DNA from: Anaerolineales bacterium
GTDB lineage: Bacteria; Chloroflexota; Anaerolineae; Anaerolineales; UBA6663
Length of the DNA stretch: 64,000 nt
Assembly: GCA_016789175.1 (NCBI GenBank)
Contig: JAEURK010000122.1
Location: 718 to 64,717, forward strand
Direction of reading: 5' to 3'
Below the pieces are notes generated by a model, which saw only the letters and a list, made by a program, of their open reading frames with translations, was not told where the DNA came from and did not search any database. This document shows positions 512 to 37,146 of the stretch, piece after piece (within the stretch, counting starts at the first letter, position 1; each line of letters opens with the position of its first letter). A program made the translations under genes and the position numbers.

Positions 512-522
512 GTTTACCTCAC

Positions 523-5491: not shown

Positions 5492-5503
5492 CGAGCGACG
5501 GGG

Positions 5504-7725: not shown

Positions 7726-7763
7726 GTCGCAGCGATACCCTTTCCAGCGCCCGGCGCGGCGGC

Positions 7764-8282: not shown

Positions 8283-8338
8283 TCGCTCGACTCCTTCGAC
8301 CCGACGACCAAAACGTCGTCGCTCGACACTCCCAAGGC

Positions 8339-9202: not shown

Positions 9203-10017
9203 GACGCCTCTGGGCGCTGGTAGAACGAGATACCAGCGCTCTTGAACCCGATTTGTGCAGCTTGCGAGACCACTTCCGTGCCGCCGACGAAGAGCACGCC
9301 GCCCGGCCGCAGGCTGTCATAGAACTTGCGATACAGTCCGGCCTTGGCCGGCTCGGTGAAGTAGATAACCACGTTACGGCAGAGCACCAGGTCGAAATCG
9401 GTGCCGGCCGGCGGCATCGTCACCAGGTTGTGTTCGCTGAACGAGATCCGGCGCTGGATCTTTTCGACGACGCGATAGGGCGGGCCGCCCGGCTCGAAAT
9501 ACTTGGCCTTGAAGGCGGCGCTGACGTTGGCGGTGTCCTCGGCCGGATAGGGGCCGCGCGCCTTCGAGCGCGCCAGCGCGCCGCGGTCGAGGTCGGTCGC
9601 CACGATCTCATAACGGCCGCCGTGACCGAGCTCTTCGAGCATCATGGCCAGGCTATACGGCTCCAACCCGATCGAGCAGCCGGCGCTCCAAATGCGGAGC
9701 TTGGCGCCCAGGGTGCCGCCGGCCGCGGCCTGGCGCCCTTTAAGCACCAGCGGCACGATCGCATCACGCAGGTAGTCCCAGCGATCGGGGTCGCGGAAGA
9801 AGGCCGAGACGTTGATCGTCAGATAATCGCGCAGCTTGGCGATATCCGGCTCCGAGCCCTTGATCGCTGTGAAATATTCGGGCCAGGTCTTACGACCGGA
9901 GCGGACCAGCCAGGCGTCCAGACGGCGCCGCATCTGCTCATCCTTGTAGTAATCCAGGTCGATATCAAGGATGGCGCGGATACTGCGCTTGACTGTCGCG
10001 TACGTCTCGAGATCCAT
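9199..10017 (-). CDS. cheR: chemotaxis protein methyltransferase CheR
   Basis: 272 aa. TINVSAFFRDP, SAM-binding IWSAGCSIGLEPYSLAMML and CRNVVIYF. Confidence 0.9.
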   Translation of the reverse strand: MDLETYATVKRSIRAILDIDLDYYKDEQMRRRLDAWLVRSGRKTWPEYFTAIKGSEPDIAKLRDYLTINVSAFFRDPDRWDYLRDAIVPLVLKGRQAAAGGTLGAKLRIWSAGCSIGLEPYSLAMMLEELGHGGRYEIVATDLDRGALARSKARGPYPAEDTANVSAAFKAKYFEPGGPPYRVVEKIQRRISFSEHNLVTMPPAGTDFDLVLCRNVVIYFTEPAKAGLYRKFYDSLRPGGVLFVGGTEVVSQAAQIGFKSAGISFYQRPEAS

Positions 10018-10034
10018 AGCTTAGCTACCTCACC

Positions 10035-11117
10035 TTATCGGCGCACCGCGCGTTCGATCGCGCGGGCCACCTCGGGCAGCGGCGCGATTTCGTCGGCCAC
10101 ACCCGCTTCGGCGACGCTGCGCGGCATCCCCCACACCACGCACGTGCTCTCGTCTTCGGCGATGACATGTCCGCCGGCTTGATGCACCAGGGTCGCACCC
10201 TGCGTGCCGTCGTGGCCCATCCCGGTCAGGATGGCCGTCACCAGGCGCCCGCGATAATGCGGCACCAGAGAGGTCAGGGTCACGTCGATTGCCGGTCGTA
10301 CACCCTGGACGGGCGGGTTCTGGTTCAGCGTCGCGCGCACGTTGGCGTCGAACTGCAAATGGAACCCCCCGGGCGCCAGCAGCGCCAGACCGGCCTCCAG
10401 CGCATCCCCGGGACGTGCCTCGCGCACATGGAAGCCCGAGATCCCGTCCAATCGCTCGGCCAGCGAGCGCGTGAACCCGACCGGCATGTGTTGCACGATC
10501 ACCACAGCCGCGTTGAGATTCCCGGCCAACCCTTGCATGACGGTCTGCAGCGCCCGCGGACCGCCGGTCGAGGAGCCGATGAACACCACCCGATCGGTGT
10601 TGCGCAGCTCACGCGTCGTCTTGACCGTCTGCGGCGGGGCCGGCTCGGTCGCCAGCGTCATCGGGCGCGAAAGTCGTCCGACCTTGACCCGGGCCGCGGC
10701 GCGGACCTTGGCGATGACCTCTTCCATTACACCGGCAACGTTGGCGCGCGAGGCCGGTTTCGTGACGAAATCGACAGCGCCCAGCGTCAACGCCTGGACC
10801 GTCTCACGCGCGCCCTCACCGGTCAGCGAACTCAACATGACCACCGGTCGCGGAGCCGAGGCCATGATCTGACGCAACGTGGTCAGCCCATCCATCCTCG
10901 GCATCTCGACGTCAAGGGTCACCACATCGGGCTGAAAACGCTGGATCAACCCCAACGCCTCTTCGCCGTCATGGGCGCTCGCCACCACCTGGATGCCGGC
11001 CGCATCGTTCAGATGCTTGGAGATCGTGAACCGCATGAACGCGGAATCGTCGACCACCAACACCCGGATCGTGCCGGTCGCCGCAGGCGGCGCATCAGCG
11101 GATCGCGTGACCATCAT
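10035..11117 (-). CDS. cheB: protein-glutamate methylesterase/deamidase CheB (REC + CheB_methylest)
   Basis: 360 aa. Receiver motifs VLVVDDSAFMR and DVVTLDVEMPRMDG. Catalytic region IGSSTGGP...HMP...GMGHDG. Confidence 0.9.
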   Translation of the reverse strand: MMVTRSADAPPAATGTIRVLVVDDSAFMRFTISKHLNDAAGIQVVASAHDGEEALGLIQRFQPDVVTLDVEMPRMDGLTTLRQIMASAPRPVVMLSSLTGEGARETVQALTLGAVDFVTKPASRANVAGVMEEVIAKVRAAARVKVGRLSRPMTLATEPAPPQTVKTTRELRNTDRVVFIGSSTGGPRALQTVMQGLAGNLNAAVVIVQHMPVGFTRSLAERLDGISGFHVREARPGDALEAGLALLAPGGFHLQFDANVRATLNQNPPVQGVRPAIDVTLTSLVPHYRGRLVTAILTGMGHDGTQGATLVHQAGGHVIAEDESTCVVWGMPRSVAEAGVADEIAPLPEVARAIERAVRR

Positions 11118-11130
11118 GGGGTGTTGACCC

Positions 11131-11487
11131 TTAGGCCAGGGCGCGCTTCAGGGCGGCCAGCACGCGATCTGGTTCGAACGGCTTGACCACGAAGTCACGG
11201 GCGCCCGACTTGATTGCCTCGAGCACGACCGACTCCTGCCCGAGCGCCGTGAGCATGACGACCCGCGCGTTCGGATCGCCGCTGCGGATCTCCTTGAGAG
11301 CGGCCAGGCCGTCCATCTCGGGCATGGTCACGTCCATGAGGACCGCATCGGGCCGGTTCTCGCGATACTTGGCCACGGCCTTGGCGCCGTTGTCGGCCTC
11401 GACGACTTCGTGACCGTTGCCGGTCAGCATCTTCGTGATGCGCACCCGCAGGAACTCCGCATCATCCACCACTAGAATCTTCGCCAT
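11131..11487 (-). CDS. cheY: chemotaxis response regulator CheY
   Basis: 118 aa. MAKILVVDDAEFLR, VLMDVTMPEMDG, FVVKPF. GGAGGG SD upstream. Confidence 0.9.
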   Translation of the reverse strand: MAKILVVDDAEFLRVRITKMLTGNGHEVVEADNGAKAVAKYRENRPDAVLMDVTMPEMDGLAALKEIRSGDPNARVVMLTALGQESVVLEAIKSGARDFVVKPFEPDRVLAALKRALA

Positions 11488-11575
11488 CGTTCATCCCTCC
11501 ATCACAACTTCGACTGTGCGCTTGAACGCCGAGTGCGTTCGCGCGCCCTGCCCCGGGCCGCGACCTTGACCGGGT

Positions 11576-12067
11576 TTACGCCAATGCCTTTTCCTGATTG
11601 CCAAGGGCCTTCACCGTCATGCGTCCGTCGGTCACGTACAGCCGCACCGTTCGCCCTACCGTCCCGCCGACATCCTCAGCCAGCAGTCTGAGCCGCAACC
11701 CGTCGAGCACGATCCGCGTCTGCTGCACGTTGCGCTCGCCGATGTTGAAGGCCTGCTTGGCGCCCGGCGCCGAGAGCATGTTGGCGCCGCCGGCGATCCG
11801 CACGTGCAGCCGGCTGCGCATGGCTCCGGCCTTCTCCATCTCTTCGAGCAGCTTGGGGATGCCGGTCGTCACGAACTTGCCGGGAACCTGCTCCGTGCCG
11901 TTCAGGCTCTGGGGCAGGACGGCATGCAACAGGCCGGCCACCTTCGAAACCGGGTCGAATACGCCGACCCCGACGCAGGAGCCCAGACCGTAAGCCACCA
12001 ACACATCGCCGGGGCTGCTGCTGATCTTGATTTCGCCCAGCCCAACGGGCAGTGCCTGATCGGCCAT
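11576..12067 (-). CDS. cheD: chemoreceptor glutamine deamidase CheD
   Basis: 163 aa. CheD signature GLGSCVGVGVFDP...LLHAVLP...GGANM. Confidence 0.85.
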   Translation of the reverse strand: MADQALPVGLGEIKISSSPGDVLVAYGLGSCVGVGVFDPVSKVAGLLHAVLPQSLNGTEQVPGKFVTTGIPKLLEEMEKAGAMRSRLHVRIAGGANMLSAPGAKQAFNIGERNVQQTRIVLDGLRLRLLAEDVGGTVGRTVRLYVTDGRMTVKALGNQEKALA

Positions 12068-12068
12068 G

Positions 12069-12668
12069 TCAGCTCCCGGTCCCCCGGAACATCTCGAGCG
12101 AGTTCGCGTCCGGGATGATCCAGAACATCACCTCGACCTCGCGGCCGGCGCGCACGAAAGTGCCCTGAAGCATCAGCACTTCGTCGCTGATCCCGGCCAC
12201 GGTGGCGGTCACGACGTTCAAGATCGCGCCCACCATATCGACGATCACGGCCGGCGGGCTCGGACGAGCATCCCAGTGCATGATCGTGGCCACCCGGTTG
12301 AGGAAATAGCCGGTCGTGATGTTGCCGACCTCGCCCAGGGCCGAGCGCTCCATCGAGCCGAGCGTCTTGGTCGAACCGACCGGCTCGCCGATCACCAGAT
12401 CGACCAGCTCGCAGGCTTTTTCGAAGGGCAGTACGAGCACGAATTGCGCCACCAGATCGCCTTCGGATTGAAGGTAGATCCCGACCGCCTCGCGCTCGGG
12501 GCCGCCCAGCACATTGGGGATCTCGACCAGCGGCACCATCCGGGTCGCCGGGCGGCTGGACATGATCTGTTCGCCCAACATCCCCGACAGGCCTTCGGCC
12601 GCGTGCTGAAAACCCTGGATCCCGGTCGTCTCGAGGAAGAGCTTGAGCTTCTCGTCGTTATTCATCAT
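12069..12668 (-). CDS. cheC: CheY-P phosphatase CheC
   Basis: About 199 aa from ATG 12668. The second active-site motif ALGEVGNITTGY...PSPP is clear; the first E-x2-N motif is not evident. Lies 1 nt from the cheD start. Confidence 0.8.
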   Translation of the reverse strand: MMNNDEKLKLFLETTGIQGFQHAAEGLSGMLGEQIMSSRPATRMVPLVEIPNVLGGPEREAVGIYLQSEGDLVAQFVLVLPFEKACELVDLVIGEPVGSTKTLGSMERSALGEVGNITTGYFLNRVATIMHWDARPSPPAVIVDMVGAILNVVTATVAGISDEVLMLQGTFVRAGREVEVMFWIIPDANSLEMFRGTGS

Positions 12669-12690
12669 TGCCAGGTGCTTCTTTCTAGCC

Positions 12691-14712
12691 TTACGCACCG
12701 CCAAGCCGGAACAGGCCGGGCACATCGGCGATCAGGGCTACCCGCCCATCGCCCAGAATGGCGGCCCCGGCCGTGCCGGGCGTGTCGCCGATCAAGGAGC
12801 TGATGGTCTTGATGACCAGCTCCTGCTCACCGATCAGGCGGTCGACCGCCAGACCCATCTCGAGCTTGCCCCAGCGCACGGCCACGACATATTCCTGGGC
12901 CCGTGGCTTGCGCTGGCCGCCGTTCAAGGCCAGGACCTCGCCCAGATACACGATCGGCAGCACCCGCTCGCGCAGGCGCATGACCGGTCGGCCGTTGATC
13001 TTCTTGATCTGTTCCTTGGGCACCCGCAGCGCTTCGACCACGCTCGGCAACGGCACGGCCATGGTGTTGTCGTTGACCTTCACCAGCAGTGCCGGAACGA
13101 TCGCAAGCGTCAGCGGCAGCGAGACGCTGAACACCGTGCCTTCACCCGGTTTGGTGTCGATCGCGATCGAGCCGTTCAGGCGTTCGATGTTAGAGCGCAC
13201 AATGTCCATTCCGACGCCGCGCCCCGAAATGTTCGAGACGTTGCGGGCGGTGGACAGTCCCGATTCAAAGATCAGGTTGATGGCTTCGTCGTTTGACAGA
13301 GCCGCGGCCTCGGCCTCGGTCAGCCGGCCCTTGCGGACCGCGCTGGCCTTTACGGCTTCGACGTTGATACCGCGGCCGTCATCCTCAACGGTCACGATGA
13401 TCCGGCCTTCTTCGTGGCGCGCCGTGAGTAGCACGGTGCCGGTCGCGCTCTTGCCGGCCGCGATGCGCGCCTCGGGCCCTTCCAGGCCGTGATCGACCGA
13501 GTTGCGCACCAGATGGATCAGCGGGTCGCTGATCGCCTCGATCACAGTCCGGTCGAGCTCGGTGTCTTCGCCGCGCATCTGCAGGTCGATCTGCTTGCCC
13601 GTCGCTTTGGCCAGGTCACGCACCAGACGCGGGAACTTGTTGAACGCGGTCGAGATCGGCAGCATGCGGATCCGCATCACCTCTTCTTGCAGTTGATCGG
13701 TGATGCGGGCCAGATGCTGGGTCGTCTGAACCAGGTCCTCGTACAGGCTGTCGCCGCGCAGTTTGGGCTCGATGCTCGAGCGGAGTTGCGCCAGGCGGTT
13801 GCGATCGGTGATCAGCTCACCGGTCAGGTTCATCAGGGTGTTGACCCGCTCGATCGTGGTACGGATCGTCTGTTCGCCGGCGGCGGGCTTGGGGGCCGCA
13901 GCCGACTTCCCGGCCGGCTCGGGCGCCTTGACCTTCACCGGCGTTGGCTCGGGCAGTTGGGCGGCCACCGCCACCGGCGCCGCGGCTTCCGGCAGCGGCT
14001 GACCAGCGGGCACCACCGCCACCCGCGTCACGTCCGAGACCCAGGCCAGGGCCTGTTCGATCTCAGCCGGGCTCTTGTCGGTCTGCATCTGCCCCACGAA
14101 GCGTGCGCACGGCTTGGCGGCTTCGATCGTTGCCGCATCCGGCACATGGCTGGCCAGGGTGCCCAGCCCCTGCAGCGTGATCATGATCTGCAGAGCGCGC
14201 GCCGCCGAGGCGACGCTGGCCGGGTCGATGTCCACCACGACCTGGAGCCCGTTGCCCGTCGCCGGCTCGGGCGCCGCGGTCGGCACGCTGACAGACGCCT
14301 CGGGCGCCTCGGGCGCGATGTTCTCCATGTTGATCTCGAGGGCCGTGACCAGCACGTGGTGATCGACGTCGCTGACCTCGTGTGTTACGACCTCTTCCAG
14401 GAGCAGCCGCAGCGCGTCCAGGCTGCCCAGCAAAGCATCCATCATCTGCGGCGAGGTGCTGTACTGGCCCTTGCGCAGTCCGTCGAGCACGGTCTCCATC
14501 GCATGCGTGAGTTCTGTCATGCGGATGTGACCGATCGCGCCGGCCGCGCCTTTCAGGGTGTGCGCGGCCCGAAAGATCACCTGGAGCAATTCGTCATCGG
14601 CGCCCGAGCGCTCGAGACGCATCAGGCCGTCTTCGAGTTTCTGAAGTTGTTCTTCGGCTTCGGGCATGAAGACCTGGAGTTCATCGTCTGCGATATCAAA
14701 CATGATCGGCAT
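12691..14712 (-). CDS. cheA: chemotaxis histidine kinase CheA
   Basis: 673 aa. Hpt box FRAAHTLKGAAGAIG, kinase core HLVRNSVDHG...DDGRGI...GRGVGMDIV, C-terminal CheW-like domain. GGAGAGGG SD upstream. Confidence 0.95.
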   Translation of the reverse strand: MPIMFDIADDELQVFMPEAEEQLQKLEDGLMRLERSGADDELLQVIFRAAHTLKGAAGAIGHIRMTELTHAMETVLDGLRKGQYSTSPQMMDALLGSLDALRLLLEEVVTHEVSDVDHHVLVTALEINMENIAPEAPEASVSVPTAAPEPATGNGLQVVVDIDPASVASAARALQIMITLQGLGTLASHVPDAATIEAAKPCARFVGQMQTDKSPAEIEQALAWVSDVTRVAVVPAGQPLPEAAAPVAVAAQLPEPTPVKVKAPEPAGKSAAAPKPAAGEQTIRTTIERVNTLMNLTGELITDRNRLAQLRSSIEPKLRGDSLYEDLVQTTQHLARITDQLQEEVMRIRMLPISTAFNKFPRLVRDLAKATGKQIDLQMRGEDTELDRTVIEAISDPLIHLVRNSVDHGLEGPEARIAAGKSATGTVLLTARHEEGRIIVTVEDDGRGINVEAVKASAVRKGRLTEAEAAALSNDEAINLIFESGLSTARNVSNISGRGVGMDIVRSNIERLNGSIAIDTKPGEGTVFSVSLPLTLAIVPALLVKVNDNTMAVPLPSVVEALRVPKEQIKKINGRPVMRLRERVLPIVYLGEVLALNGGQRKPRAQEYVVAVRWGKLEMGLAVDRLIGEQELVIKTISSLIGDTPGTAGAAILGDGRVALIADVPGLFRLGGA

Positions 14713-14800
14713 GTTGGCACCCTCTCCGCTTCACTGTAGCATTTCGGTTAGTGCGCTTCTATAAATCGGCTGTGAAGGCAGCGGAAATTCGAGCGAAAAG

Positions 14801-18931: not shown

Positions 18932-20284
18932 TTACAACCCGCGCGCGCGGGCATAGTCCTCCGGGGTGTCGATGTCGAGCAGGATGGCATTGTCGGGCGC
19001 CACCACGTTCTCGACCGGGAGACCTGCCAGCGCCTGGCGCGGGTTGGCGTTGGCGGCCAACGCCATCACGCGCGGCCAGACGGCGCGATCCAACAACAGC
19101 GGGTGTCCACGCTTATCGCCATGCACAGGCGCCACGACCGGCGCCAACGTCTCGCGCCAACGCTGCACGAGATCGCCGATGACCGCCGTCGGCATGAGCG
19201 GTTGATCGCCAAGCGCAACCAGAGCCGCCTCGGGGGCGGTCTGCAGCGCCTTCAAGCCCGTCTGCAGCGAACGCCCCATCTCCGCTTCTGCGAAGTCCGG
19301 GTTATGCACGAAACTCAGACGCGGGTCGCCCTCGGCCGCGGCGCGCGCCACCGCTTCGATCCGCTCGCGCTCGGCGCCCGTCACGACCACGATCTCGGTC
19401 ACCGGCGTGGCGCGCAGGCGCGTCAGCACGGCGCCCAGGATCGTGCCACCCTCGGCCCATTCCATCAGGAGCTTCGGCTGCCCCATCCGCGTCGACTGGC
19501 CCGCCGCCAGGACGACGGCGCCGACCCGACCGTGCACCTCGGCCACGGCGTTGGGTTTGCGCGCCGTGCCGAGCAGGACGGTGTTGATCCGCGGCTCAAG
19601 CAGCAGACGCTGTGCGATCCCACGGCCGATCTCGAGCCGCCGCGGCAGATCGACCCGATTGAGGAAGACGGCCACGCGGGCACCCTTGGGCACGCCTTTC
19701 AGACCGCCCTCGGGATGGGCCAGCACCCGTGCCAACACGTCGGCAGTGACGTCGTGGCCCACGTCGACATTTGCCAGCTCGGCGGCCCGCGCGGCGTTGT
19801 GCACGTTCAGGTCGATGATGGCCTCGCCGATGGCTTCCAGGTTGGCCATGACGACGACCAGGGTCGTCGCGGGCGGCACGGCCGGCTCGTCACCGAGCGG
19901 GGCCTTGAACAGACGGCGATTGCCACTGTCGGTCTTGATCAACAGGGCGCCCAATTTAGGAACCGTCAGCAAGTCGTCGATCAGGCCGGCAGTCACCGGC
20001 GCGGCGCTATCGATCGCCCGGTCGACCGGACCGGTGACGAAGAGGTGGGTGTGACGATCGAGCGCGGCCTCCACCCGGCCGCGGTTGGCCTCGGCCGACG
20101 AGAAATGGCGCGGCGCCCGCTCAATCAGGGCCGGTGACACCTTGACGGTCGTGGTCGTCAGCACCGTCCGGCCATGCTCGGCCAAATCATCGGCCAGTCG
20201 GAACATGGCTGTCGTTTTGCCGCCGGCACCGGTGAAAGCCACCACCTCGCCGTCGTCGATTCGAAGAGCTTGGAACAATCGCAT
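18932..20284 (-). CDS. YqeC-like accessory protein fused to MocA-like molybdenum cofactor cytidylyltransferase
   Basis: About 450 aa from ATG 20284. N-terminal VVAFTGAGGKTTAMFRLA (YqeC P-loop type). C-terminal VVLAAGQSTRMGQPK...ALGDQP...DIDTPEDY (MobA/MocA type). Confidence 0.75.
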   Translation of the reverse strand: MRLFQALRIDDGEVVAFTGAGGKTTAMFRLADDLAEHGRTVLTTTTVKVSPALIERAPRHFSSAEANRGRVEAALDRHTHLFVTGPVDRAIDSAAPVTAGLIDDLLTVPKLGALLIKTDSGNRRLFKAPLGDEPAVPPATTLVVVMANLEAIGEAIIDLNVHNAARAAELANVDVGHDVTADVLARVLAHPEGGLKGVPKGARVAVFLNRVDLPRRLEIGRGIAQRLLLEPRINTVLLGTARKPNAVAEVHGRVGAVVLAAGQSTRMGQPKLLMEWAEGGTILGAVLTRLRATPVTEIVVVTGAERERIEAVARAAAEGDPRLSFVHNPDFAEAEMGRSLQTGLKALQTAPEAALVALGDQPLMPTAVIGDLVQRWRETLAPVVAPVHGDKRGHPLLLDRAVWPRVMALAANANPRQALAGLPVENVVAPDNAILLDIDTPEDYARARGL

Positions 20285-20490
20285 GTGAAGATTCTCACTC
20301 AAAGTGCGCGGAATGCAAGGCGCAGGCTGCGTGGCGCTTCGGGCATGGCGCTGTTCTTCACCTGGCGCTTTGTGCCAGACGCGTGACGCGGGTTGCCTGA
20401 CGTGTACACCTGACGCCTTCTGCCCAACGTGCCCTGCCTGATGTGTGCTACCCGGTGAGTGGGCTCTACACGCGGCTCTTCGATCTAACT

Positions 20491-20557
20491 CCCCCTCCAG
20501 GAAAACGCGCAACAAGCCGGTTCTGAGCCCAACCGGTACACGTTTCCCTGGAGGGGG
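20491..20557 (-). terminator. large hairpin downstream of the ankyrin gene (candidate operon terminator)
   Basis: 17-bp arms CCCCCTCCAGGAAAACG (20491-20507) and CGTTTCCCTGGAGGGGG (20541-20557) with one mismatch. An inner small hairpin CCGGTT...AACCGG sits in the loop. Confidence 0.45.
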
Positions 20558-20575: not shown

Positions 20576-21454
20576 TCATGCCACATCGGCCTCCCGCAAC
20601 CGCGCGACGTCCAGCGGCGTGGCCCCCTTGGGATACGGCCCAAAGGCGACCCGCAGCCGTTTGGTCTGGCTCGCGCCAGCGCGGATGAGGTCCTGCGCCA
20701 GCGCCACATGTCCGTTGGCGGCGGCCTCGTGCAGGGGCGTGAAGCCGTATCGATCCTGCGGGTCGGGCCGGGCGCCGGACTTGAGCAGCCGCCGCGCCAG
20801 AGCGCGATCGCCGGAGTGGGCGGCATAGTGCAGAACGGTCAGGCCGAGGTGGTCGCGGGCGTCGAGGTCGATGTCCGTGGCCTTCAGCAACAACGCGATC
20901 ACGGGCCCGGCGCCCCGGTCGACGGCGCCGAACAGCGCGGTCTGCCGGTACTGGGCCGTGCGCGCGTTGACGTCGACACCCTGTCGCAGCAGGTAGCGCG
21001 CGACGCCCAACAGCCGATCCCGCAGCGCCTGCGCTTCGGCGGCGGCCCGGGAGGTCTCGGCCTCGTTTGCGCCGGCGCGGGCCCAGGCATCGGCGATGAC
21101 ATACAACAGCGGCACCCCGGCCCGGCGTTCGACCGCGAGCCGGGCTCCCGCGGCGTGCAGGGCCCGAACCGTCGGAAGCGCGCCGGCATAGGCCGCGGCC
21201 GCGATCGGCGGCACGATCTCGGCGGACCAGGCGTTCACGTCCGCGCCGGCGGCGATCAGGGCCCGCGCCAGACGGGCTCGCTCGGCCTCGCTTTCGAACA
21301 CACCGCGACAGACGTAATGCAGGGCCGTGTCGCCGTCGACCTCGCGCATCCGCACGGCAACGCGCCGCCGGCCGGCCGGGAGCGCGCGCAGGTCAGCCCA
21401 GAGCGCGGACCACTCGCCGGCGGCTGCCCATTCGAGCAGGGTGCGTTCACTCAT
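20576..21454 (-). CDS. ankyrin repeat protein
   Basis: 292 aa. Repeated TALHYV/TVLHYAAHSGD/TPLHEAAANGH...LIAAGADVNA patterns. Confidence 0.8.
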   Translation of the reverse strand: MSERTLLEWAAAGEWSALWADLRALPAGRRRVAVRMREVDGDTALHYVCRGVFESEAERARLARALIAAGADVNAWSAEIVPPIAAAAYAGALPTVRALHAAGARLAVERRAGVPLLYVIADAWARAGANEAETSRAAAEAQALRDRLLGVARYLLRQGVDVNARTAQYRQTALFGAVDRGAGPVIALLLKATDIDLDARDHLGLTVLHYAAHSGDRALARRLLKSGARPDPQDRYGFTPLHEAAANGHVALAQDLIRAGASQTKRLRVAFGPYPKGATPLDVARLREADVA

Positions 21455-21539
21455 CTCGCTTGCTCCGACGAAACGAATGTGCCAGGGATCGAGGCTTCAC
21501 CCGACCCTGGCACATTCGCATTGACCGATAGGGTTGGCG

Positions 21540-22271
21540 TCAGGCGGCCGGTTTGTCGCCCTCAGCCGGCTTAGGCGCGGCGGGCTTGGGGGCTGCCGCC
21601 GGCTTGGCCGGGGCGGCCCCACCCTCGGCCGCCGGCTTCGCAGCCGCAGCGGGTTTGGCAGCCGCAGCCGCGGCCTTGGCGGCCTTCTTGGCCTCTTCTT
21701 CGGCCCGGATCGTTTCCTCACGCTGGAAGTTGCGCGGCCGGATCGAGGCGTAGTAGCTGAGCGGCTTGCCCAACGCCTCTTTGTTCATGATGTGCTTGAC
21801 CGTGCGATCGTACGAGGCCATCTCATAGTTATGGTCCATCTTGATCGCGTCGAACGGGCAGAACTCGGCGCAAAAGCCGCAATTCATGCAGATGTCGATA
21901 TCGATGTGGAACTCGCGCGGCTGCGGCACCGGTCGACCGGTCTTTGGATCGTTGGTGCGCTCGATCCAGATGCACTGCGGCGGGCAGACCTTGGCGCAGA
22001 TGCCGCACGACGTGCAGCGGAAGTCCTTCTCGGTACCCTTCTCTTCGTACACCAGGAACGGCGTAAACCGAAATTCCTCGGGCACCGGCATCTTCTCGTC
22101 CGGGTACATCACGGTCATGGCGCCCTTGCCCTTGGGCCCCTGCCGCGTCAACAGATGCTTCGGATCCGAGCTGTAGTACTTACGGCCCAAATACTTCAGG
22201 TCGTCCGCGTAGCTGCCCAGCAGGTGCCGCAGCACCACGCCCATGCCCTTGAGGATTCCAGTTCCGAACAT
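21540..22271 (-). CDS. nuoI: NADH-quinone oxidoreductase subunit I (2x[4Fe-4S]) with Ala/Lys/Pro-rich C-terminal tail
   Basis: CTSCGICAKVCP and CMNCGFCAEFCP. Preferred ATG at 22271 with GAGAGG 4 nt upstream; the track start at 22286 is also possible. Confidence 0.9.
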   Translation of the reverse strand: MFGTGILKGMGVVLRHLLGSYADDLKYLGRKYYSSDPKHLLTRQGPKGKGAMTVMYPDEKMPVPEEFRFTPFLVYEEKGTEKDFRCTSCGICAKVCPPQCIWIERTNDPKTGRPVPQPREFHIDIDICMNCGFCAEFCPFDAIKMDHNYEMASYDRTVKHIMNKEALGKPLSYYASIRPRNFQREETIRAEEEAKKAAKAAAAAAKPAAAAKPAAEGGAAPAKPAAAPKPAAPKPAEGDKPAA

Positions 22272-22287
22272 AGCACCTCTCGACATT

Positions 22288-22346
22288 GCTGATTGCCGAT
22301 TTCTGATTAGCGGAAGTCAATCAGCAATCAGAAATCGCCAATCAGC
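22288..22346 (-). promoter_or_regulatory. intercistronic 21-bp inverted repeat between nuoCD and nuoI
   Basis: GCTGATTGCCGATTTCTGATT (22288-22308) and AATCAGAAATCGCCAATCAGC (22326-22346), with one central mismatch and a 17-nt loop. AT-rich island in a 67-nt spacer, ending just upstream of the nuoI start. Confidence 0.5.
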
Positions 22347-22353
22347 GATCAAA

Positions 22354-24117
22354 TCACCGGTCCACTTCGCCCAATACGATATCGATGCTGCCCAGGATGG
22401 CCACGACGTCGGCGACCTTCCAGCCCTCGCAGGCCTTGCCAAGCGAGGTCAGGTTGATGAAGCTGGGGGCGCGGACGTGGTAGCGGTATGGGTTCGGCTT
22501 GCCGTTCGAGACGGTATAGAACCCGAGCTCGCCCTTCGGGCTCTCGATTCGGCCATAGGCCTCGCCGGCCGGCACCCGCGCCTGGTACTGCTGCTTGCCC
22601 GAAAGGATCTCGCCCTCGGGCAATTGAGTCAGCGCCTGCTGCAGGATCTTGACGCTCTCGCGCGCCTCGAACACGCGCACCTTGTACCGATCGAACAGGT
22701 CACCCGTCTGACCCAGCGCGATATTGAAGTCGAAGCGATCGTAGATGCCGTAGGGCTCGGCCTTGCGAATGTCGTAGGGCACACCCGCAGCGCGCAGGAT
22801 CGGCCCGGAGACGCTGTAGCCGATCGCATCGGCAGCCGACAACGCGGCAACCCCGATACACCGGGAGCGCACGATCTCGTTGTCGGTGAGATAGGCCTCG
22901 ATCTCATCGATCTTGCGCGGCAGGCGCTCGAAGGCCAACTCCTTGAGGGTCTCGAGCGCGCCCGGAGGCAGATCGCGCGAGACGCCGCCGAAGCGCATGT
23001 AGTTGACCATCATGCGCGAGCCGGCGGTGGCCTCGAACACGTCGAGGATCATCTCGCGCTCGGTCATCATGTACAGCGCCGGGGTGAAGAAGGCGCCGAG
23101 GTCGTTGAGGAAGAAACCGATCCACCACAGGTGGCTGGCCACGCGCGTGAACTCATCCATGATCACGCGCAGGTATTCGGCGCGCTCGGGCACCTTGGCG
23201 CCCATCAACTTCTCGACCGCCATCACGTACCCGTGGTTGTTGCACATCGGGGTGAGGTAGTCGAGCCGGTCGGTGAACGGGATGTTCTGGATGAAGGTGT
23301 TGCGCTCGCCGATCTTCTCGTGATTGCGGTGCAGGTAGCCCATCACCGGATCGAGCTTGACGATCGTCTCGCCGTCGAGCGTGACGATCAGGCGCAGCAC
23401 GCCGTGCGTCGAAGGGTGTTGCGGGCCGAGGTTGACCGTCACGTAGTCGGTCTGCATGCCCTCGGTCGTCAGGCCCTTGCCGTCGACCGGCATCGCGTCG
23501 TACATGGTGCGGTCCGACTCTTCCGACCAACCCTCGAGCGTGAAGCCGTCGGGATAGGCGACGTTGTTGCCGAACGGGTTCTTGTCTTCGACCCGGTGCA
23601 CCTGGCCGCCCGGCCAGCGCGTGTCGTAGGGCTTGGAATCCTGCTCGAAGTAGGCTTCCTTCCAGTCCTTGCGCATCGGGTGGCCGTGAAAGCCCTCCCA
23701 CATCAGGATGCGCCTCAGGTTCGGATGCCCCGTGAACTTGATGCCGTACAGGTCCCAGGCTTCGCGCTCCTGAAAGTCGGCGCCCGGGAAGATCGGGGTC
23801 AGGCTGGGCAGCACCGGCGCGTCGTGGCTGGTCTGCGCGTGCAGCACGATCGCGCCGCCCCCGGCATCCAGATTATAGAGATGGTAGACCATCTCCATCT
23901 GGCCCTGCTCGAGGTAATGCACGGGTGTCGCAGCTGACAGAAACTTGAAGTTGTAGCGATCGCGCAACGCCGTCGCAACTTCGACCAGGTGCTTGGGCTT
24001 GACGGTGTAGCCCGAATAACCCTTGCGGGTTTCGACGCTGACCGCATCGGGAAAGGCCTCGTGGAGCTTGACGTCCTCGGCCTTGAGCTTGAGGTTGGAG
24101 AGTTCAGCAGTGGCCAT
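22354..24117 (-). CDS. nuoCD: NADH-quinone oxidoreductase fused subunit C/D
   Basis: 587 aa. N-terminal NuoC-like region ([14 protein letters not shown]). NuoD region [15 protein letters not shown]...DRLDY...VLGEVDR at the C-terminus. Confidence 0.9.
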
Positions 24118-24157
24118 GATTTCGGTGTGACCTGCCTGTTTCGCGGATGCGCTGACG

Positions 24158-24859
24158 TCAGCCGGCGGCCGGCGGTTCGGTTGCGGCGGGTTCGACCGCG
24201 GGCGCCGCGACCAGAGCGGCCTGCTCTACTAGAGCAGCCTGCTCGGCCGCGCGCTGGCGCAGCAGCCCGGCGTGACGCGGGTCGATCAGATCCGGGCCGA
24301 GAATCGGAACCGGGATCGGCTCCTCGGCGCCCGGCTGGTACCAGCGCACGGTCCGGATCGACTGGGAGTCGATCTTCTTCTGCAATGTGATCAGGCCGTG
24401 CAGCAGCGCCTGCGGAGTGGGCGGGCAACCCGGCACGTACACGTCGACCGGCAGGAACTTGTCGATGCCCGACACGACGTTGTAGCCGTCCTTGAAGGGC
24501 CCGCCGCCGCTGGCGCAGGCGCCCATGGCCATGACGTACTTGGGTTCGGGCATCTGGTTGTACAGGCGCACGATCTGGGGCACCATCTTCTTTGTCACGG
24601 TGCCCGAGACGATCATCAAGTCTGCCTGGCGGGCCGACGGTCGCATGACCTCCATGCCAAAGCGGCTCAGGTCGAAGCGGGCCGCTGCCGTGCAGATCAT
24701 TTCGATCGCGCAACAGGCCAGGCCGAAGAGCATCGGCCACAGCGAATTGCGCCGGCTCCAGTTGTAGATCTTGTCGATCGAGGTGACGATCAGGTTGCCC
24801 TCGATCTCAGCCGGGACTTTGATGTCGGGGTTGGCAAGTTCCTTGGCGATGCTGCTCAT
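24158..24859 (-). CDS. nuoB: NADH-quinone oxidoreductase subunit B with extended C-terminus
   Basis: [15 protein letters not shown]...[10 protein letters not shown]...PGCPP (N2 cluster ligands). The ATG at 24859 overlaps the iscX-like TGA (ATGA). Confidence 0.9.
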
Positions 24860-25065
24860 AAAGTCGTCCTGCTCTCGTACCACTCCTGATAGATGGCTTC
24901 AAGCAAATCGTCGTTCGCGAGCTCGGGTTCGTCTTTGAAATCCGGGAGGGAGATTACCCAATTGTAGACCAGATTAAGGGTGACCTCTTCGAGTCCCACG
25001 TCGGGATGCTCGGCCTCCAATCGCCGCGCAACGGCATAGGCTGAGTCCCAATACAGATCATCCAT
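24856..25065 (-). CDS. IscX-like (YfhJ) Fe-S assembly accessory protein
   Basis: 69 aa. [23 protein letters not shown]...[12 protein letters not shown]...LLEAIYQEW parallels the E. coli IscX pattern W-DS...YPD.D...W...L.DF.DDP...LEAI..W. Confidence 0.65.
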
Positions 25066-25108
25066 CGCTCCCGCCCTGCCCTGCCCGCGGAGGACGATCA
25101 GACATGCG

Positions 25109-25153
25109 GGTGCTCCGTGGTTTCGGGGCTGGGCCCCAAAACCACGGAGCACC
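25109..25153. repeat. long hairpin/palindrome in the divergent iscX-like / sufR-like intergenic region
   Basis: GGTGCTCCGTGGTTT (25109-25123) pairs with AAACCACGGAGCACC (25139-25153). Inner GGGGC/GCCCC extension after one mismatch, 3-nt loop. Confidence 0.6.
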
Positions 25154-25299
25154 CCACGCTTTCCGTCATTCCCCTGCCGCCGGGCCAAAGTCGCTCGTGA
25201 CAGATTTCGCAATTGAATTATATCTGTCGGATTTGTTGTGTCAAATTGGAGGCGCCAAAACGTGCTATTCTTTGGGCAGAACTGATAAGTCAGGCGCAT

Positions 25300-25329
25300 T
25301 TGACAAAAAAAGATCCGCGACGCTAGAAT
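25300..25329 (+). promoter_or_regulatory. candidate sigma70-type promoter for the SufR-like gene
   Basis: TTGACA (25300-25305), 18-nt spacer, TAGAAT (25324-25329). Lies in an AT-rich stretch 26 nt before the ATG. Confidence 0.45.
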
Positions 25330-25354: not shown

Positions 25355-25996
25355 ATGCAAGCAACACGGCAGCAGATCCTCGAATACCTCAAGGTCCACG
25401 GGCCCTCCACGGTCGACCAATTGGCCGAGGTGCTCGAGTTGAGCCCCGTCACCGTTCGACATCATCTCGACATCCTGCGCAGCGAAGAGCTGATCGGTGA
25501 GCCGGTCGTGCGGCGGCGCGCGACACGCGGGCGGCCGCAACACCTCTTTGCGCTGACCGACAAGGCCTCCAGCCACTTCCCGAAGCGTTACCACGAGCTG
25601 GCGAACGGCCTGTTGAGCCAGATCAAACAGCATGCCGACGATCGCACCGTCAATGTGATCTTCGCCGGGTTGAGCGACGCGATGTTGGCCGAAGCGCCGC
25701 GTCCGGACGACGCCAGCCCGCTCCCGGCCCGGCTTACGCAGGCCGTGGCCTACCTCAACACCCAGGGCTACGTCGCGCGCTGGTCGACCGTCGACGACGG
25801 CTTCGTGGTCCACACCTGCAATTGCCCGTTTGAGGCCGTCGCATCCGATCACGGTGAGTTGTGCGGGCTCGACGCCCGCCTGATCAGCACCCTGGTCGGC
25901 TCGCCCGTAGAGCGTCGCACCCATTTTGCCGAGGGCGACGCCAGCTGCACGTACTTCGTGGCTGGCTCGGTCGGGGCCCAGGCCGCCGGGAATTGA
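25355..25996 (+). CDS. winged-helix transcriptional regulator, SufR-like (N-terminal HTH, C-terminal Cys cluster)
   Basis: 213 aa. QQILEYLKVHGPSTVDQLAEVLELSPVTVRHHLDILRSEELI...GRPQHLFALT. C-terminal cysteines HTCNCP...ELCG...ASCTY. Confidence 0.6.
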   Translation: MQATRQQILEYLKVHGPSTVDQLAEVLELSPVTVRHHLDILRSEELIGEPVVRRRATRGRPQHLFALTDKASSHFPKRYHELANGLLSQIKQHADDRTVNVIFAGLSDAMLAEAPRPDDASPLPARLTQAVAYLNTQGYVARWSTVDDGFVVHTCNCPFEAVASDHGELCGLDARLISTLVGSPVERRTHFAEGDASCTYFVAGSVGAQAAGN

Positions 25997-26110
25997 CCAG
26001 AGTCCCGTCGCTGAAAAGTTGACAGCGCCGGGTGATCTTGTTACCATTTCGCACGTGTGCGTCCCAAACCGGGCGCATGAGGTTTGACATCACGCGACGC
26101 CGGAGGACAC

Positions 26111-26554
26111 ATGACCACTCAGACTGAAATGCCCACCACCCTGACCGAGCTCACACCCGTCACTGAATCGGTGTTGACGCTTCTGCCGGCTGCAGCGGCC
26201 AAGCTCTCCGAGCTGTTGACTTCCCGCAATCTGACCGATCACGGCCTGCGCGTGTTCGTCTCCGGCGGCGGATGCTCCGGCATGCAATACGGCATGGCGA
26301 TCGAAAAGGACGCCAGCGAGTTCGATACCGTCTTCGAGCAGGCCGGCCTGCGCGTCATCGTCGACCCCACCTCGCTCAGCTATCTCTCGGGCGCCACGAT
26401 CGATTACATCGACAACCTGATGGGCGGCGGTTTCCGGATCGACAATCCGAACGCCGTGTCGACCTGCGGGTGCGGTCATTCGTTCCGCGGCTCGGCCCAG
26501 ACCGAATCCTCGGACGAGGGCGAGAGCTGCGGCAGCGGCTGCGGTTGCCACTGA
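26111..26554 (+). CDS. A-type Fe-S cluster carrier (IscA/ErpA/HesB family) with Cys/Gly-rich C-terminal extension
   Basis: VFVSGGGCSGMQYG...NPNAVSTCGCGHSF. Extra tail SCGSGCGCH. GGAGGA 4 nt before the ATG at 26111. Confidence 0.85.
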   Translation: MTTQTEMPTTLTELTPVTESVLTLLPAAAAKLSELLTSRNLTDHGLRVFVSGGGCSGMQYGMAIEKDASEFDTVFEQAGLRVIVDPTSLSYLSGATIDYIDNLMGGGFRIDNPNAVSTCGCGHSFRGSAQTESSDEGESCGSGCGCH

Positions 26555-31295: not shown

Positions 31296-34073
31296 CTAAT
31301 TTAGCACATCCAACACGGCGCGCAAGTTGCGCTCGACGTTCACGCCCAGGTTGATCCGCAACACGCGGCGCTTACGCGCCAACAGGGCCTGCAGATCGCC
31401 CAATGCCTGCGCGTTCTTCAGCCCCGAGAAGCTGTAGGGCTGGCCCGGCACGGGCGCATCGACCGCATCGTCGCAGACGAGTTGGATGAAAACCCCATTG
31501 TTGGCGCCGCCCTTGTGAAGCTGGCCGGTTGAATGCAAGAAGCGCGGGCCGTACCCGAGCGTGGTCGCGGCCCCGGTCTTGTCACGCAAGGCCGCCTGCA
31601 GCTCACGCAGCAGTTTCTCGCGCTTGGGCGTGGCGTGCAGATACGCCATGATCGCCACGTAATCGTTGCGGTGCACGCTCTGCAGATGCTGGCGCACCGT
31701 CGCCGCGAGGCCGGCATCGACGCGCACTTCCTCGGCAGCCGGCAGCTGGCCGGTCTCGGAGAGAGTCGCCAGCAACGCCCGGGTCTTGTCCTTGGCCTCT
31801 TGCACGTTGGGCTGATCGAACGGGTCGATCGCCAGCACCCAGCTGGCGGCCGTTGTCGCGATCTCCCAGCGCAGGAACTCGCCGCCCAGGTCGTACACGT
31901 CGTCGAGCGTGATCGTCACGACCGGCTGCCCGGCGCGGGCCAGGGCCTTGAGCGCGCGCTCGTTCTCCGAATCCTTTCCGAGCTTGAGGTGGATGAAGAG
32001 CCGGTCGAGCCCGTAGGCGCGCGGCTTGGCCAGCGCCTCGCCCTCGATCGGCAGGATGCCCACGCCGTCTTTGCCGGTCGACTCGGCGATCAGTTGCTCG
32101 ACCCAGTAACCAAAGGTGCGCACTTTGGGCGAGGTCAGCACCGTGACCTTGTCGCGCTTCGACTTGGTCAGGGCGCCCAGGATCGCGCCCAGGTGCAGCC
32201 CGGGATTGCGGACCGGCGGCACGTTCGGGCCGCAGGCCGCGGCCATGCGCTGCGCCCGGCCGAGCAGTTTGGGGAGGTCGATGCCCATCAATGCCGCGGG
32301 CACCAGGCCGAAGAGTGAGAGCGCCGAGTAGCGCCCACCGATCTCAGGCGGATTCACGAACACACGCCGGAAGCCGCGCTCTTTGGCCATGGCTTCGAGC
32401 GCCGTGCCCGGGTCGGTGATGGCGACGAAATGTTCGCCGGCCCGGCGTCCTTTGAGCTGGGTCAGCTTGGCCCAGAAGTGGTTGTTGAAGGCATTGATCT
32501 CGGCCGTGCCGCCCGATTTCGAGGCGACGATGTAGAGCGTGCGCGCCGGATCGCTGCGCGCCTCGGCGGCCAGCACCGCGGCCGGGTCGGTCGAATCGAG
32601 CACCGCCAGATCAAGATAACCCTTGGCCACGCCAAAGGTCATGCGGAGCACCTCGGGTGCCAGCGACGAGCCCCCCATGCCGAGCAGCAACGCATGCGTA
32701 AAGCCGGCCCGGCGCACCTCGCCCGCAAACGTGGTCAGGTGCGCGATCTCGGCCGTCATCTGGACCGGCAGATCGAGCCAGCCCATGCGGATCTTGATCT
32801 CGCCCTGATGAGCAGGATCGTTCGGCTTCCAAAGCGTGGTGTCTTTGCGCCACAGGCGCGGCCCGAATTCGGCCCGCGCCATGGCCGCGGTCGAACGGGC
32901 GGCCGTGGCCGCGCTGCGCCCGAGCTCGGGCACCTGGCGGTCGGCCAGCAGCACCGCCTGGCGCCGGGTCTCGACCACACCCAACAGCGTTTCGAACGAC
33001 TTGGTGAAGGAGGCCACGCCCTCGCGCTCGAGCTGGGCCGTGACATCATCCATGTGGATGCCGACTTCTTCGAGCTTCTCGATCACGGCTTCGGCCTCGG
33101 GCGCCGTCGCGGCCAGGCGCACCTCCGGTTTGCCGTGGTCCTTATAGGCCACGACCGTGGCCGGCGGCATAGTGTCGACCGTATCGGGCGCGATCAGGGC
33201 CTCGACGTAGTACACGTCGGGATAGGCCGGGTTCTTCGTGCTGGTGCTGGCCCAGAGCGGCCGCTGCAGGCGCGCGCCTTTGGCCGCCAGTTTCTGCCAG
33301 CGCGGTCCCGCAAAAGTAGCGCGGAAGGCGGCATAGGCCAGCTTGGCGTTGGCGATCGCGGCCTGGCCCTTGAGCGCGTCGAGCGCCTTGGCCTCGGTCT
33401 TGCTCAGCGCGCCGCGCTTCAGATCGAGCTGCTTGTCGACCAGGCTGTCGACCCGGCTGACGAAGAAGCTCGCCACCGAAGCGAGCCCGTCGATCGGCTT
33501 GCGCGCCCCGGCGCGTTTCTCGAGCCCGGAGAGATAGGCCTCCATCACTTCACGGTAGCGCTCGATCGAGAAGATCAGGGTGACGTTGACGTTGATGCCC
33601 TCGGCCAGGCACTGCGCAATCGCGGGCAGACCCTCTTTGGTCGCCGGGATCTTGACCATCAGGTTGGGCTTGCCGACGGCCTTCCACAGCCGACGCGCCT
33701 CGGCCACCGTCGCCGCCGTATCACGCGCCAGGTTGGGCGCGACTTCGATGCTGACGTAGCCGTCCGCCCCGCCCGTCCGCCGGAACACCGGCCCAAACAC
33801 GTCGGCGGCGGCGCGGATGTCGTCAATCGAGAGTCCATCGTAGATGTCGAGCGCGGATTTGCCGGCGCGCGCCAGAGTCGCGATGTGCTCGTCGTAATCG
33901 TTGCTGCCGGCGATGGCCTGTTCGAAGATCGTGGGGTTGGAGGTCAGGCCTGTGATGTCGCCGGCTTGGACCATCTTCTTGAGCGCGCCGGTGGTCAGGA
34001 GGCTGCGGCGGATGTTGTCGTGCCAGGGGGATTGACCCAAAGCGGTCAGCTGCGCAAGAGGATGTGTCGCCAT
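31296..34073 (-). CDS. bifunctional transaldolase / glucose-6-phosphate isomerase
   Basis: 925 aa. N-terminal transaldolase (GQSPWHDNIRR...TGLTSNPTIF...MVKIPAT). C-terminal PGI-like half (GMGGSSLAPEV...SKSGGTAE). Confidence 0.9.
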   Translation of the reverse strand: MATHPLAQLTALGQSPWHDNIRRSLLTTGALKKMVQAGDITGLTSNPTIFEQAIAGSNDYDEHIATLARAGKSALDIYDGLSIDDIRAAADVFGPVFRRTGGADGYVSIEVAPNLARDTAATVAEARRLWKAVGKPNLMVKIPATKEGLPAIAQCLAEGINVNVTLIFSIERYREVMEAYLSGLEKRAGARKPIDGLASVASFFVSRVDSLVDKQLDLKRGALSKTEAKALDALKGQAAIANAKLAYAAFRATFAGPRWQKLAAKGARLQRPLWASTSTKNPAYPDVYYVEALIAPDTVDTMPPATVVAYKDHGKPEVRLAATAPEAEAVIEKLEEVGIHMDDVTAQLEREGVASFTKSFETLLGVVETRRQAVLLADRQVPELGRSAATAARSTAAMARAEFGPRLWRKDTTLWKPNDPAHQGEIKIRMGWLDLPVQMTAEIAHLTTFAGEVRRAGFTHALLLGMGGSSLAPEVLRMTFGVAKGYLDLAVLDSTDPAAVLAAEARSDPARTLYIVASKSGGTAEINAFNNHFWAKLTQLKGRRAGEHFVAITDPGTALEAMAKERGFRRVFVNPPEIGGRYSALSLFGLVPAALMGIDLPKLLGRAQRMAAACGPNVPPVRNPGLHLGAILGALTKSKRDKVTVLTSPKVRTFGYWVEQLIAESTGKDGVGILPIEGEALAKPRAYGLDRLFIHLKLGKDSENERALKALARAGQPVVTITLDDVYDLGGEFLRWEIATTAASWVLAIDPFDQPNVQEAKDKTRALLATLSETGQLPAAEEVRVDAGLAATVRQHLQSVHRNDYVAIMAYLHATPKREKLLRELQAALRDKTGAATTLGYGPRFLHSTGQLHKGGANNGVFIQLVCDDAVDAPVPGQPYSFSGLKNAQALGDLQALLARKRRVLRINLGVNVERNLRAVLDVLN

Positions 34074-34218
34074 CGCATGTTCCTATCTTTGATCGGCGAG
34101 CCTGGGCCCGACCGAGTCGCTAGTGTGGCGTGTGGAGCGCGGCCCGCCAACAGCAGGCCGCGGCGTTTTGCAGGGCCGTCAAGCGCGTCGACGCTGTGTC
34201 GGTACGCCAGGGCCGCGC

Positions 34219-34689
34219 TCAACGGTCTCCGGGCTGTGGCCCGCCTTGCTCCAGAGCCTTGACTTTATTGAGCCGGCGCACCAAACGCTCTTCGTTCTGG
34301 AAGGTCGCGCCCAAGAAAGCGCGCGTGATCTCGGACGCCAGCTCGGAGCCGATGATCCGCGCCCCGACGCACAACACATTCATATCGTCATGTTCGACGC
34401 CCTGATGGGCCGAGTAGGTGTCATGACACACTCCGGCCCGGATGCCCCGCATCTTGTTTGCCGCGATACAGGCGCCGACGCCGCTGCCGCACAAGACGAT
34501 GCCACGCTCGGCACGGCCCGCCTGCAGCTCCAGACCGACCGCTTTCGCCGAGTCCGGGTAATCGACCGGATGATCGGCCGAATCGGTCCCAAGGTCGAGC
34601 GTCTCCCACCCGAGCCCCTGAGCCACCTCGATCAGCCTGGATTTCAGCACAAACCCGCCATGATCGGCGGCAATGGCCAGTCTCTTCAT
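34219..34689 (-). CDS. rpiB: ribose-5-phosphate isomerase B
   Basis: 156 aa. [13 protein letters not shown]...[17 protein letters not shown]...[15 protein letters not shown]. Confidence 0.9.
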
Positions 34690-34759
34690 TCTTTGCCCTC
34701 AAGCCGAACAACAATGCCGCCCGTCTCCGGACCGGCGTCCATCGACCCAGACGACTCAC

Positions 34760-34795
34760 CCTCTTCCCTCTTCCCTCTTCCCTCTTCCCTCTTCC
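34760..34795. repeat. heptamer microsatellite (CCTCTTC)x5 in the tkt-rpiB spacer
   Basis: Five perfect head-to-tail copies. On the coding (minus) strand it reads GGAAGAG x5 (polypurine, SD-like), starting 11 nt after the tkt stop. Confidence 0.9.
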
Positions 34796-34805
34796 TTTTT
34801 CGCCC

Positions 34806-36854: not shown

Positions 36855-37146
36855 GGGTTCTCCTCTGTCGGGCAATGGGGCCCGGAAGTGTGCGGACACT
36901 CCATTATAATCGCCCCGTTATCGGGGCGGATGGCCAAATGCACCGGGGTGTGCACGGGCGAGTTGTCAGGCTTAGATTCCGGCCGCGGACAACGCGTGCC
37001 TGCCCACTGCGTCGGGTCCACCCCGAACCAGGCCTGACCTCAGCGCGGCCGAGATCGGACCTCCTCGAGCGGTCCTGACCTTTTGTCGCCGTTGGGCGGC
37101 AAAAGTTACGGCGCCGGCCCCAGCCCGGATATTCAGACGGAGACCC

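Follow-up and report, generated by a model that had tools for sequence, protein, structure and literature searches.

An isolated nuoB-nuoCD-nuoI block preceded by an IscX-like gene in an Anaerolineales genome: probable Q-module operon of a split-gene respiratory complex I

The stretch analyzed here (the window) is 64 kb of DNA from an Anaerolineales bacterium of the phylum Chloroflexota (GCA_016789175.1, contig JAEURK010000122.1, positions 718 to 64,717, 64,000 nucleotides). Its minus strand carries, between 20576 and 25065, a row of five genes, namely an iscX-like gene, nuoB, a fused nuoCD, nuoI and an ankyrin-repeat gene. This order had been given by an initial annotation of the window made from the letters alone, and it agrees with the open reading frame (ORF) listing combined with Pfam matches. 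We consider it very probable that the locus is the Q-module operon of a respiratory complex I with split genes, an arrangement typical of the class Anaerolineae. Finding nuoB-nuoCD-nuoI on its own in an Anaerolineae genome reflects the normal, published layout of complex I in this lineage and should not be read as a sign of a novel soluble enzyme. What deserves attention is that, over about 140 loci, the Q-module genes are closely linked to genes of iron-sulfur assembly, especially to the IscX-like gene.

The three nuo genes are recognized by domain content. The nuoB gene (listed ORF 24158-24883; PF01058), encoding the subunit of cluster N2, likely starts at the ATG at 24859 (MSSIAKEL...), which overlaps the iscX stop codon as ATGA, so that the gene spans 24158-24859 and encodes 233 aa. 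The fused nuoCD (22354-24117) encodes a 587-aa protein joining the 30-kDa and 49-kDa subunits (PF00329 and PF00346) and contributing the quinone site. The nuoI gene (21540-22286), whose product carries two 4Fe-4S motifs for clusters N6a and N6b and matches Fer4 families of Pfam, most likely starts at its second ATG, at 22271, which is preceded by GAGAGG. When all thirteen E. coli Nuo proteins (NC_000913.3) were compared to the window by tblastn, only B, CD and I gave matches, and NuoA, E, F, G, H, J, K, L, M and N found none in the 64 kb. Likewise, a Pfam scan of about 60 ORFs of the window detected no further complex I domain. The lack of nuoA, nuoH, nuoJ-N and nuoE-G beside the cluster, which the initial annotation had pointed out, is thus seen by both approaches.

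The sequences of the three proteins were then compared with curated models and solved structures. NuoB scores 232 with TIGR01957 (cut-off 143) and 241 with PRK06411 (cut-off 116), and its translation contains all four Cys ligands of cluster N2 (CC...C...CP, including PGCPP). NuoCD reaches 454 with PRK06075, above the cut-off of 360. Aligned to Thermus Nqo4 (2fug_4), its NuoD part keeps the His and Tyr residues corresponding to His38 and Tyr87 (in PSTHG and RLDYL) and retains the conserved GPQHPSTHG stretch. All eight Cys of NuoI are kept in two CxxCxxCxxxCP motifs, CTSCGICAKVCP and CMNCGFCAEFCP. With cofactor and quinone-site residues intact, NuoB, NuoCD and NuoI look like a working quinone-reducing module, as judged from their translations. 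The C-termini of NuoI (21540-21700) and NuoB (24158-24300) both end in low-complexity tails of about 50 residues rich in Ala, Pro, Lys and Glu. Since the length of NuoI varies among relatives, from 214 to 248 aa, at least the tail of NuoI is lineage-specific.

The same proteins might be taken for the Q-module-like part of a group 4 membrane-bound [NiFe] hydrogenase or of an Mbx/Mbs-type complex, as these families are homologous and Mbh, MBS and Hyc subunits do appear as distant PDB matches (6cfw, 6u8y, 7z0s). However, neither the N-terminal nor the C-terminal NiFe-binding CxxC pair is found in the NuoD translation, whose C-terminus is NuoD-like, and the alignment to Nqo4 leads to the same result, upholding what the initial annotation had said of the missing hydrogenase motif. 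Because the NiFe Cys ligands are missing, the hydrogenase reading is essentially refuted, and we give it practically no weight. Also opposed to it, the NuoD and NuoB models, whose curated cut-offs are passed, match far better than any others, and no Mrp-type antiporter genes lie nearby. The best solved homologues of NuoCD are all complex I subunits, namely Aquifex NuoCD2, Thermus Nqo4, E. coli NuoCD and the mitochondrial 49-kDa subunit, with membrane-bound hydrogenase subunits ranking far below them.

The best PDB match, NuoCD2 of Aquifex aeolicus (7q5y, 358 bits), is likewise a fusion of the 30-kDa and 49-kDa subunits of about 590 aa. The E. coli NuoCD is also fused and scores about 350 bits, but it shares about 35% identity with the window NuoCD and its gene lies inside a single nuoA-N operon. 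Complex I-type enzymes whose genes are distributed over several transcription units exist elsewhere: the ndh genes of cyanobacteria and plastids are scattered over several operons, for example ndhC-K-J. The grouping of subunits and the lineage are nevertheless different in that case, and NdhH is no closer to the window protein than other NuoD proteins (334 bits).

The distribution of the block was studied in loci obtained from a metagenome scan and a genome scan, each returning 80 loci, which after removal of duplicates gave 143 non-redundant loci with 50-96% NuoCD identity. Wherever the extent of the contig shows it, nuoB, nuoCD and nuoI are contiguous in these loci, which include the complete chromosomes CP070639.1, CP070708.1 and OZ242327.1. 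Homologues of NuoA, E, F, G, H, J, K, L, M and N were absent within 10 kb in 142 of the 143. The 80 loci from species-representative genomes all belong to Anaerolineae metagenome-assembled genomes (MAGs), several of them complete chromosomes, with taxa including Anaerolineales, Thermoflexus, Phototrophicaceae and Aggregatilineaceae. The closest NuoCD proteins (90-93% identity) come from Anaerolineae MAGs as well. At the level of the locus, a metagenome contig (L009) is 96% identical and contig JBGAGY010000006.1 of GCA_044226485.1 is 91% identical. An exact-protein look-up returned no record identical to the window NuoCD, and the gene context of five homologues contained no other nuo gene. Plasmid sequences gave only tblastn matches below 60% identity, mainly rhizobial, and a scan of viral contigs with a NuoH alignment gave no match.

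Such an arrangement is already known. The Anaerolineae genome RBG-9 has the operons nuoBC/DI and nuoAHJKLMN (Hug 2013, PMC3971608), and the "2M" complex I of Chloroflexi, for which Chadwick 2018 is cited, has a separate nuoBCDI with a fused nuoCD (McGonigle 2020, PMC7117926). The latter authors describe a MAG in which nuoL-M-M-N lies on one contig and nuoBCDI on another, the 2M type being defined by a second NuoM and a longer NuoL with an insertion of roughly 26 residues in its long helix (PMC7117926). The window locus matches this split layout: in a Chloroflexota host, nuoB, the fused nuoCD and nuoI adjoin one another, away from the rest of the nuo genes, and organism class and gene order are the same. 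The nuoB-nuoCD-nuoI block separated from membrane-arm genes therefore corresponds to a layout already described for Anaerolineae. The initial annotation had presented the set as stand-alone in its title, which is not supported because a complementary operon lacking B, C, D and I is published for relatives; moreover, the same block occurs in 143 Anaerolineae loci. That annotation had also named, as the sign of a simple operon split, a complementary cluster from which exactly B, C, D and I are missing, and essentially such a cluster has been found, although the genomes concerned are those of published relatives.

A soluble Q-module acting entirely by itself, devoid of a membrane arm, for instance a soluble ferredoxin-linked oxidoreductase, would agree with the lack of any membrane-arm gene within 10 kb in all these loci except one. 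To our knowledge, a soluble NuoBCDI enzyme is without precedent. In addition, the retention in NuoD of the quinone-site His and Tyr and of the GPQHPSTHG stretch argues against it, as does the complementary nuoAHJKLMN operon of the published relatives. We thus hold this possibility to be very unlikely.

The single locus with other nuo genes nearby, L165, belongs to an Anaerolineales MAG (CAZHMV010000008.1, 9048-21707), in which the split-type nuoB-nuoCD-nuoI is directly followed by a canonical nuoA-B-C-D-E-F-G-H. The NuoD of this canonical operon shares just 43-44% identity with the split-type NuoD. The two most distant loci, L085 and L086 (45-46% identity), belong to a different family from the split-type block. 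In both of them nuoH, nuoI and nuoJ come after the NuoD gene, with nuoK in addition in L085. NuoH sequences were obtained only from L085, L086 and the L165 canonical operon, and the NuoD proteins encoded beside them are only 43-47% identical to the split family.

These loci bear on a further explanation, namely that the B-CD-I set is part of a second, specialized 2M-type complex I, having an extra NuoM and possibly another electron donor, and operating in a cell that also has a canonical complex I of 14 subunits. According to Hug 2013 (PMC3971608), RBG-9 possesses a canonical nuoABC/DEFGHIJK operon together with its nuoBC/DI and nuoAHJKLMN operons, and PMC7117926 ties the split arrangement to the 2M complex. 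L165 points in the same direction, its split-type genes being directly followed by a second set (nuoA-B2-C2-D2-E-F-G-H) whose NuoD2 is strongly divergent. Because the split-type B-CD-I coexists in RBG-9 and L165 with a complete canonical nuo operon having its own B, C and D, it represents a distinct complex I lineage. On the other hand, a canonical operon is nearby in only 1 of the 143 loci, and the tblastn search showed no second nuo set in the 64 kb window. For the genome studied here we regard this as a plausible possibility that stays short of an even chance; it refines the split complex I explanation and does not contradict it. The initial annotation had left open a choice between a complex encoded in scattered pieces and a second, specialized set with unusual partners. 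The scattered pieces are borne out in relatives (Hug 2013; McGonigle 2020), and the second set stands only as a distinct complex I lineage (RBG-9, L165), the part concerning an ankyrin partner being given up.

Several points speak against the split complex I explanation or limit it. NuoI scores below every curated NCBIfam cut-off, the best model being that of the NuoI family, TIGR01971 (91.5 against a cut-off of 113). The complementary nuoAHJKLMN cluster comes from two papers about other Anaerolineae, not from this genome or the relatives that we fetched, and neither the metagenome scan nor the genome scan (80 loci each) revealed a split-type membrane-arm gene. Since the set coexists with a canonical operon in RBG-9 and L165, a simple split of the only complex I of the cell may be too simple a picture. 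The electron-input module may be NuoEFG or another, and co-transcription as well as termination are deduced from sequence alone.

In the split complex I that we favor, the iscX-like gene, nuoB, nuoCD and nuoI would be co-transcribed from a strong, conserved sigma-70-type promoter, and transcription would mostly stop at a hairpin located after nuoI. NuoB with N2, NuoI with N6a and N6b, and NuoCD with the quinone pocket, in all of which the residues required are intact, would assemble into a quinone-reducing module. This module would dock on NuoH and NuoA of a membrane arm encoded elsewhere (nuoA, H, J, K, L, M, possibly a second M, and N), as predicted for this genome from the published relatives. 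The IscX-like protein, together with a SufR-like regulator and an A-type carrier encoded next to the operon, would probably serve the insertion of the three 4Fe-4S clusters and link expression to iron-sulfur status.

The predicted promoter (25217-25244, minus strand) consists of TTGACA and TATAAT separated by 16 nt and agrees with the consensus at 12 of 12 positions. Both hexamers are kept in 7 relatives, down to 74% NuoCD identity. Directly 3' of the -10 box lies an 18-nt leader motif, TTGCGAAATCTGTCACGA (25195-25212, minus strand), which is exact in all 6 non-redundant close relatives and near-exact in L011 (74% NuoCD identity); it may be an operator or the transcript start. A possible dyad around the -10 box (GACAGAT, 16 nt, ATCTGTC) was also considered and set aside, as it is not kept in L097 or L091. 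Further downstream, the leader contains a hairpin built on a 22-bp inverted repeat (25108-25154, minus strand; -54.5 kcal/mol, z -9.9). It was discarded as a conserved regulatory or repeated element, since it occurs once in the window and most close relatives lack it: among the relatives compared, L009 and L090 alone show it, in weak form.

Hairpins also mark the gaps inside and behind the operon. Between nuoCD and nuoI, a hairpin with 24-nt arms (22285-22349, minus strand; -38.5 kcal/mol, z -5.9) is retained at the same position in 6 close relatives, with a different sequence and arms of up to about 33 pairs; that of the window is made of GATTG/CTGATT-like repeats. After nuoI, 14 perfect pairs followed by GUUUCGU form a terminator-like hairpin (21474-21518, minus strand; z -4.9), and long hairpins followed by GTTT(T)CG occupy the same place in close relatives, again with differing sequences. 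Because GUUU(U)CG comes after it, the post-nuoI hairpin looks like the operon terminator. The large hairpin that the initial annotation had placed 3' of the ankyrin gene does exist (20491-20557, minus strand; 17-nt arms, -55.9 kcal/mol, z -4.9), and the hairpins in the leader, in the nuoCD/nuoI gap and in the nuoI/ankyrin gap are about as strong. Rfam gave no credible RNA family in the region; an isrK match inside nuoI scored 22.5 bits against a gathering score of 50 and was taken as chance.

The first gene of the operon (24856-25065, minus strand) encodes a 69-aa protein that belongs to the IscX family, judged by both PF04384 (E 7e-13) and NCBIfam TIGR03412 (48.1, above the cut-off of 40.4). 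It aligns over its full length, at residues 4-64, to the E. coli IscX structures 2BZT and 1UJ8. In E. coli, the gene of IscX (YfhJ) closes the isc operon iscRSUA-hscBA-fdx-iscX. Here the gene is not at the end of an isc operon and adjoins nuoB instead, and it is found immediately 5' of nuoB in 96 of the 122 related loci that could be compared. The spacing between the two genes is -14 to +6 nt in 58 of 67 non-redundant pairs, the iscX stop and the nuoB start overlapping by 4 nt in 35 of the 67 and abutting with a 0-nt gap in 16. The ATGA overlap suggests translational coupling. From this conservation, we conclude that the IscX-like gene is a real, conserved companion of nuoB, so that the initial annotation was right to single it out as an unusual partner. 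A literature search yielded no report tying IscX to nuoB in a comparable way, or IscX to Chloroflexi.

Other iron-sulfur genes surround the operon. Divergent to it, on the plus strand, an ArsR-family regulator gene (25355-25996; HTH_5) is preceded by a promoter-like site of its own, recognized by sequence match (25300-25329, plus strand). The protein aligns over the full length of TIGR02702 (SufR_cyano; 2-208 of 208), yet its score of 76.4 stays under the curated cut-off of 178.8, so we only call it SufR-like. Beyond it, an A-type iron-sulfur carrier of the IscA/ErpA type is encoded (26084-26554, plus strand; PF01521), which passes TIGR00049 and scores 116.7 with the ErpA model, the cut-off being 117. 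A SufR-like regulator in divergent orientation is seen at 45 of 92 loci, with an IscA/ErpA-type carrier behind it at 23 of 84. On the other side of the operon, 72 of 93 loci have an ApbC/Mrp carrier gene 3' of nuoI, in most cases together with RicT/PSP1 next to it. This pair is absent from the clade of the window (0/4 loci), where the ankyrin gene and a YqeC-MobA gene stand in its place. Most relatives (for example L005, 12568-15015, and L004, 12482-14945) display nuoI followed by a small Cys-rich protein, ApbC/Mrp and RicT/PSP1; the small Cys-rich protein has no family match, and the clade of the window lacks all three genes. The passages on RBG-9 and the 2M complex make no mention of an IscX-like gene, of a SufR/IscA/ApbC/RicT context or of an ankyrin gene, and this iron-sulfur gene context is the sole part of the present finding for which the literature search found no description.

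We tentatively propose that the IscX-like protein may serve specifically in the maturation of the Anaerolineae Q-module, or may even be one of its accessory subunits, with its synthesis matched to that of NuoB through the stop-start overlap. The cassette formed by the SufR-like regulator, the IscA/ErpA-like carrier, IscX, NuoB-CD-I, ApbC/Mrp and RicT would in that case be an assembly unit for the three 4Fe-4S clusters controlled by iron-sulfur status. We judge this proposal somewhat more likely to be wrong than right. Both IscX and frataxin (CyaY) act on the cysteine desulfurase IscS in E. coli. There is a partial parallel in Thermus thermophilus, where Nqo15 is a frataxin-like, proven accessory subunit of complex I (PMC10855754, PMC1959517). 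In both cases a small protein of the iron-sulfur assembly type is associated with the peripheral arm of complex I in a bacterium. The difference is that Nqo15 adopts a frataxin fold and is established as a subunit, whereas the protein encoded here is a member of the IscX family connected to NuoB only through its genomic position. Another parallel is given by mitochondrial Ind1/NUBPL, an Mrp/NBP35-type carrier needed for iron-sulfur assembly of complex I (PMC7980591, PMC6196649). An ApbC/Mrp-family gene resembling it follows nuoI in the related loci counted above, but not in the clade of the window. If the proposal is true, the cassette would be a bacterial counterpart of Thermus Nqo15 and mitochondrial Ind1, and this could also explain why the B, C, D and I genes are separated from the membrane-arm operon. 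Should the link be functional, it would offer a simple bacterial setting for the insertion of the N2 and N6 clusters and for roles of the IscX family outside the isc operon.

The last gene of the row (20576-21454, minus strand) encodes a 292-aa protein with Ank families of Pfam. The initial annotation had seen in it a possible unusual partner of the complex, and one could imagine a dedicated partner of the Q-module, either a subunit or an assembly factor, as the gene shares its strand with nuoI, the 85 nt separating it from the end of nuoI contain no promoter-like site, and it is kept in the five closest relatives. Nevertheless, just 5 of the 106 informative loci have it, each with a NuoCD at least 85% identical, and the other 101 lack it. 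In the window and its relatives, a stable hairpin with a U-rich tract, the terminator-like structure described above, stands between nuoI and the ankyrin gene, and in other Anaerolineae the ApbC/Mrp and RicT genes occupy its position. A dedicated role in the Q-module is thus very unlikely, and from its distribution the gene is best described as an incidental neighbor, specific to the closest clade and outside the conserved unit.

Downstream of the ankyrin gene, a single ORF (18932-20515, minus strand) fuses a YqeC domain to a MobA-like nucleotidyl transferase, and the same fusion is found 3' of the ankyrin gene in L001. It resembles accessory genes for molybdenum hydroxylases. L001 also shares with the window a 928-aa fusion of transaldolase and glucose-6-phosphate isomerase, encoded here in a pentose-phosphate cluster (31296-36917, minus strand) together with RpiB and transketolase. 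Three ORFs of 390-450 aa (36976-38322, 4199-5491 and 59200-60375) display a coding-like GC3 and have no Pfam match. A large chemotaxis and signaling cluster (86-14730) encodes CheY-like receivers, a GGDEF response regulator, CheW, CheX, HDOD, CheR, CheB, CheD, CheC and CheA, which suggests a motile Anaerolineales. Finally, a PCuAC copper chaperone (50840-51415, minus strand) and a Cox11/CtaG-like protein (52498-52992, minus strand), both assembly factors of haem-copper oxidases, point to aerobic respiration, which fits a respiring organism.

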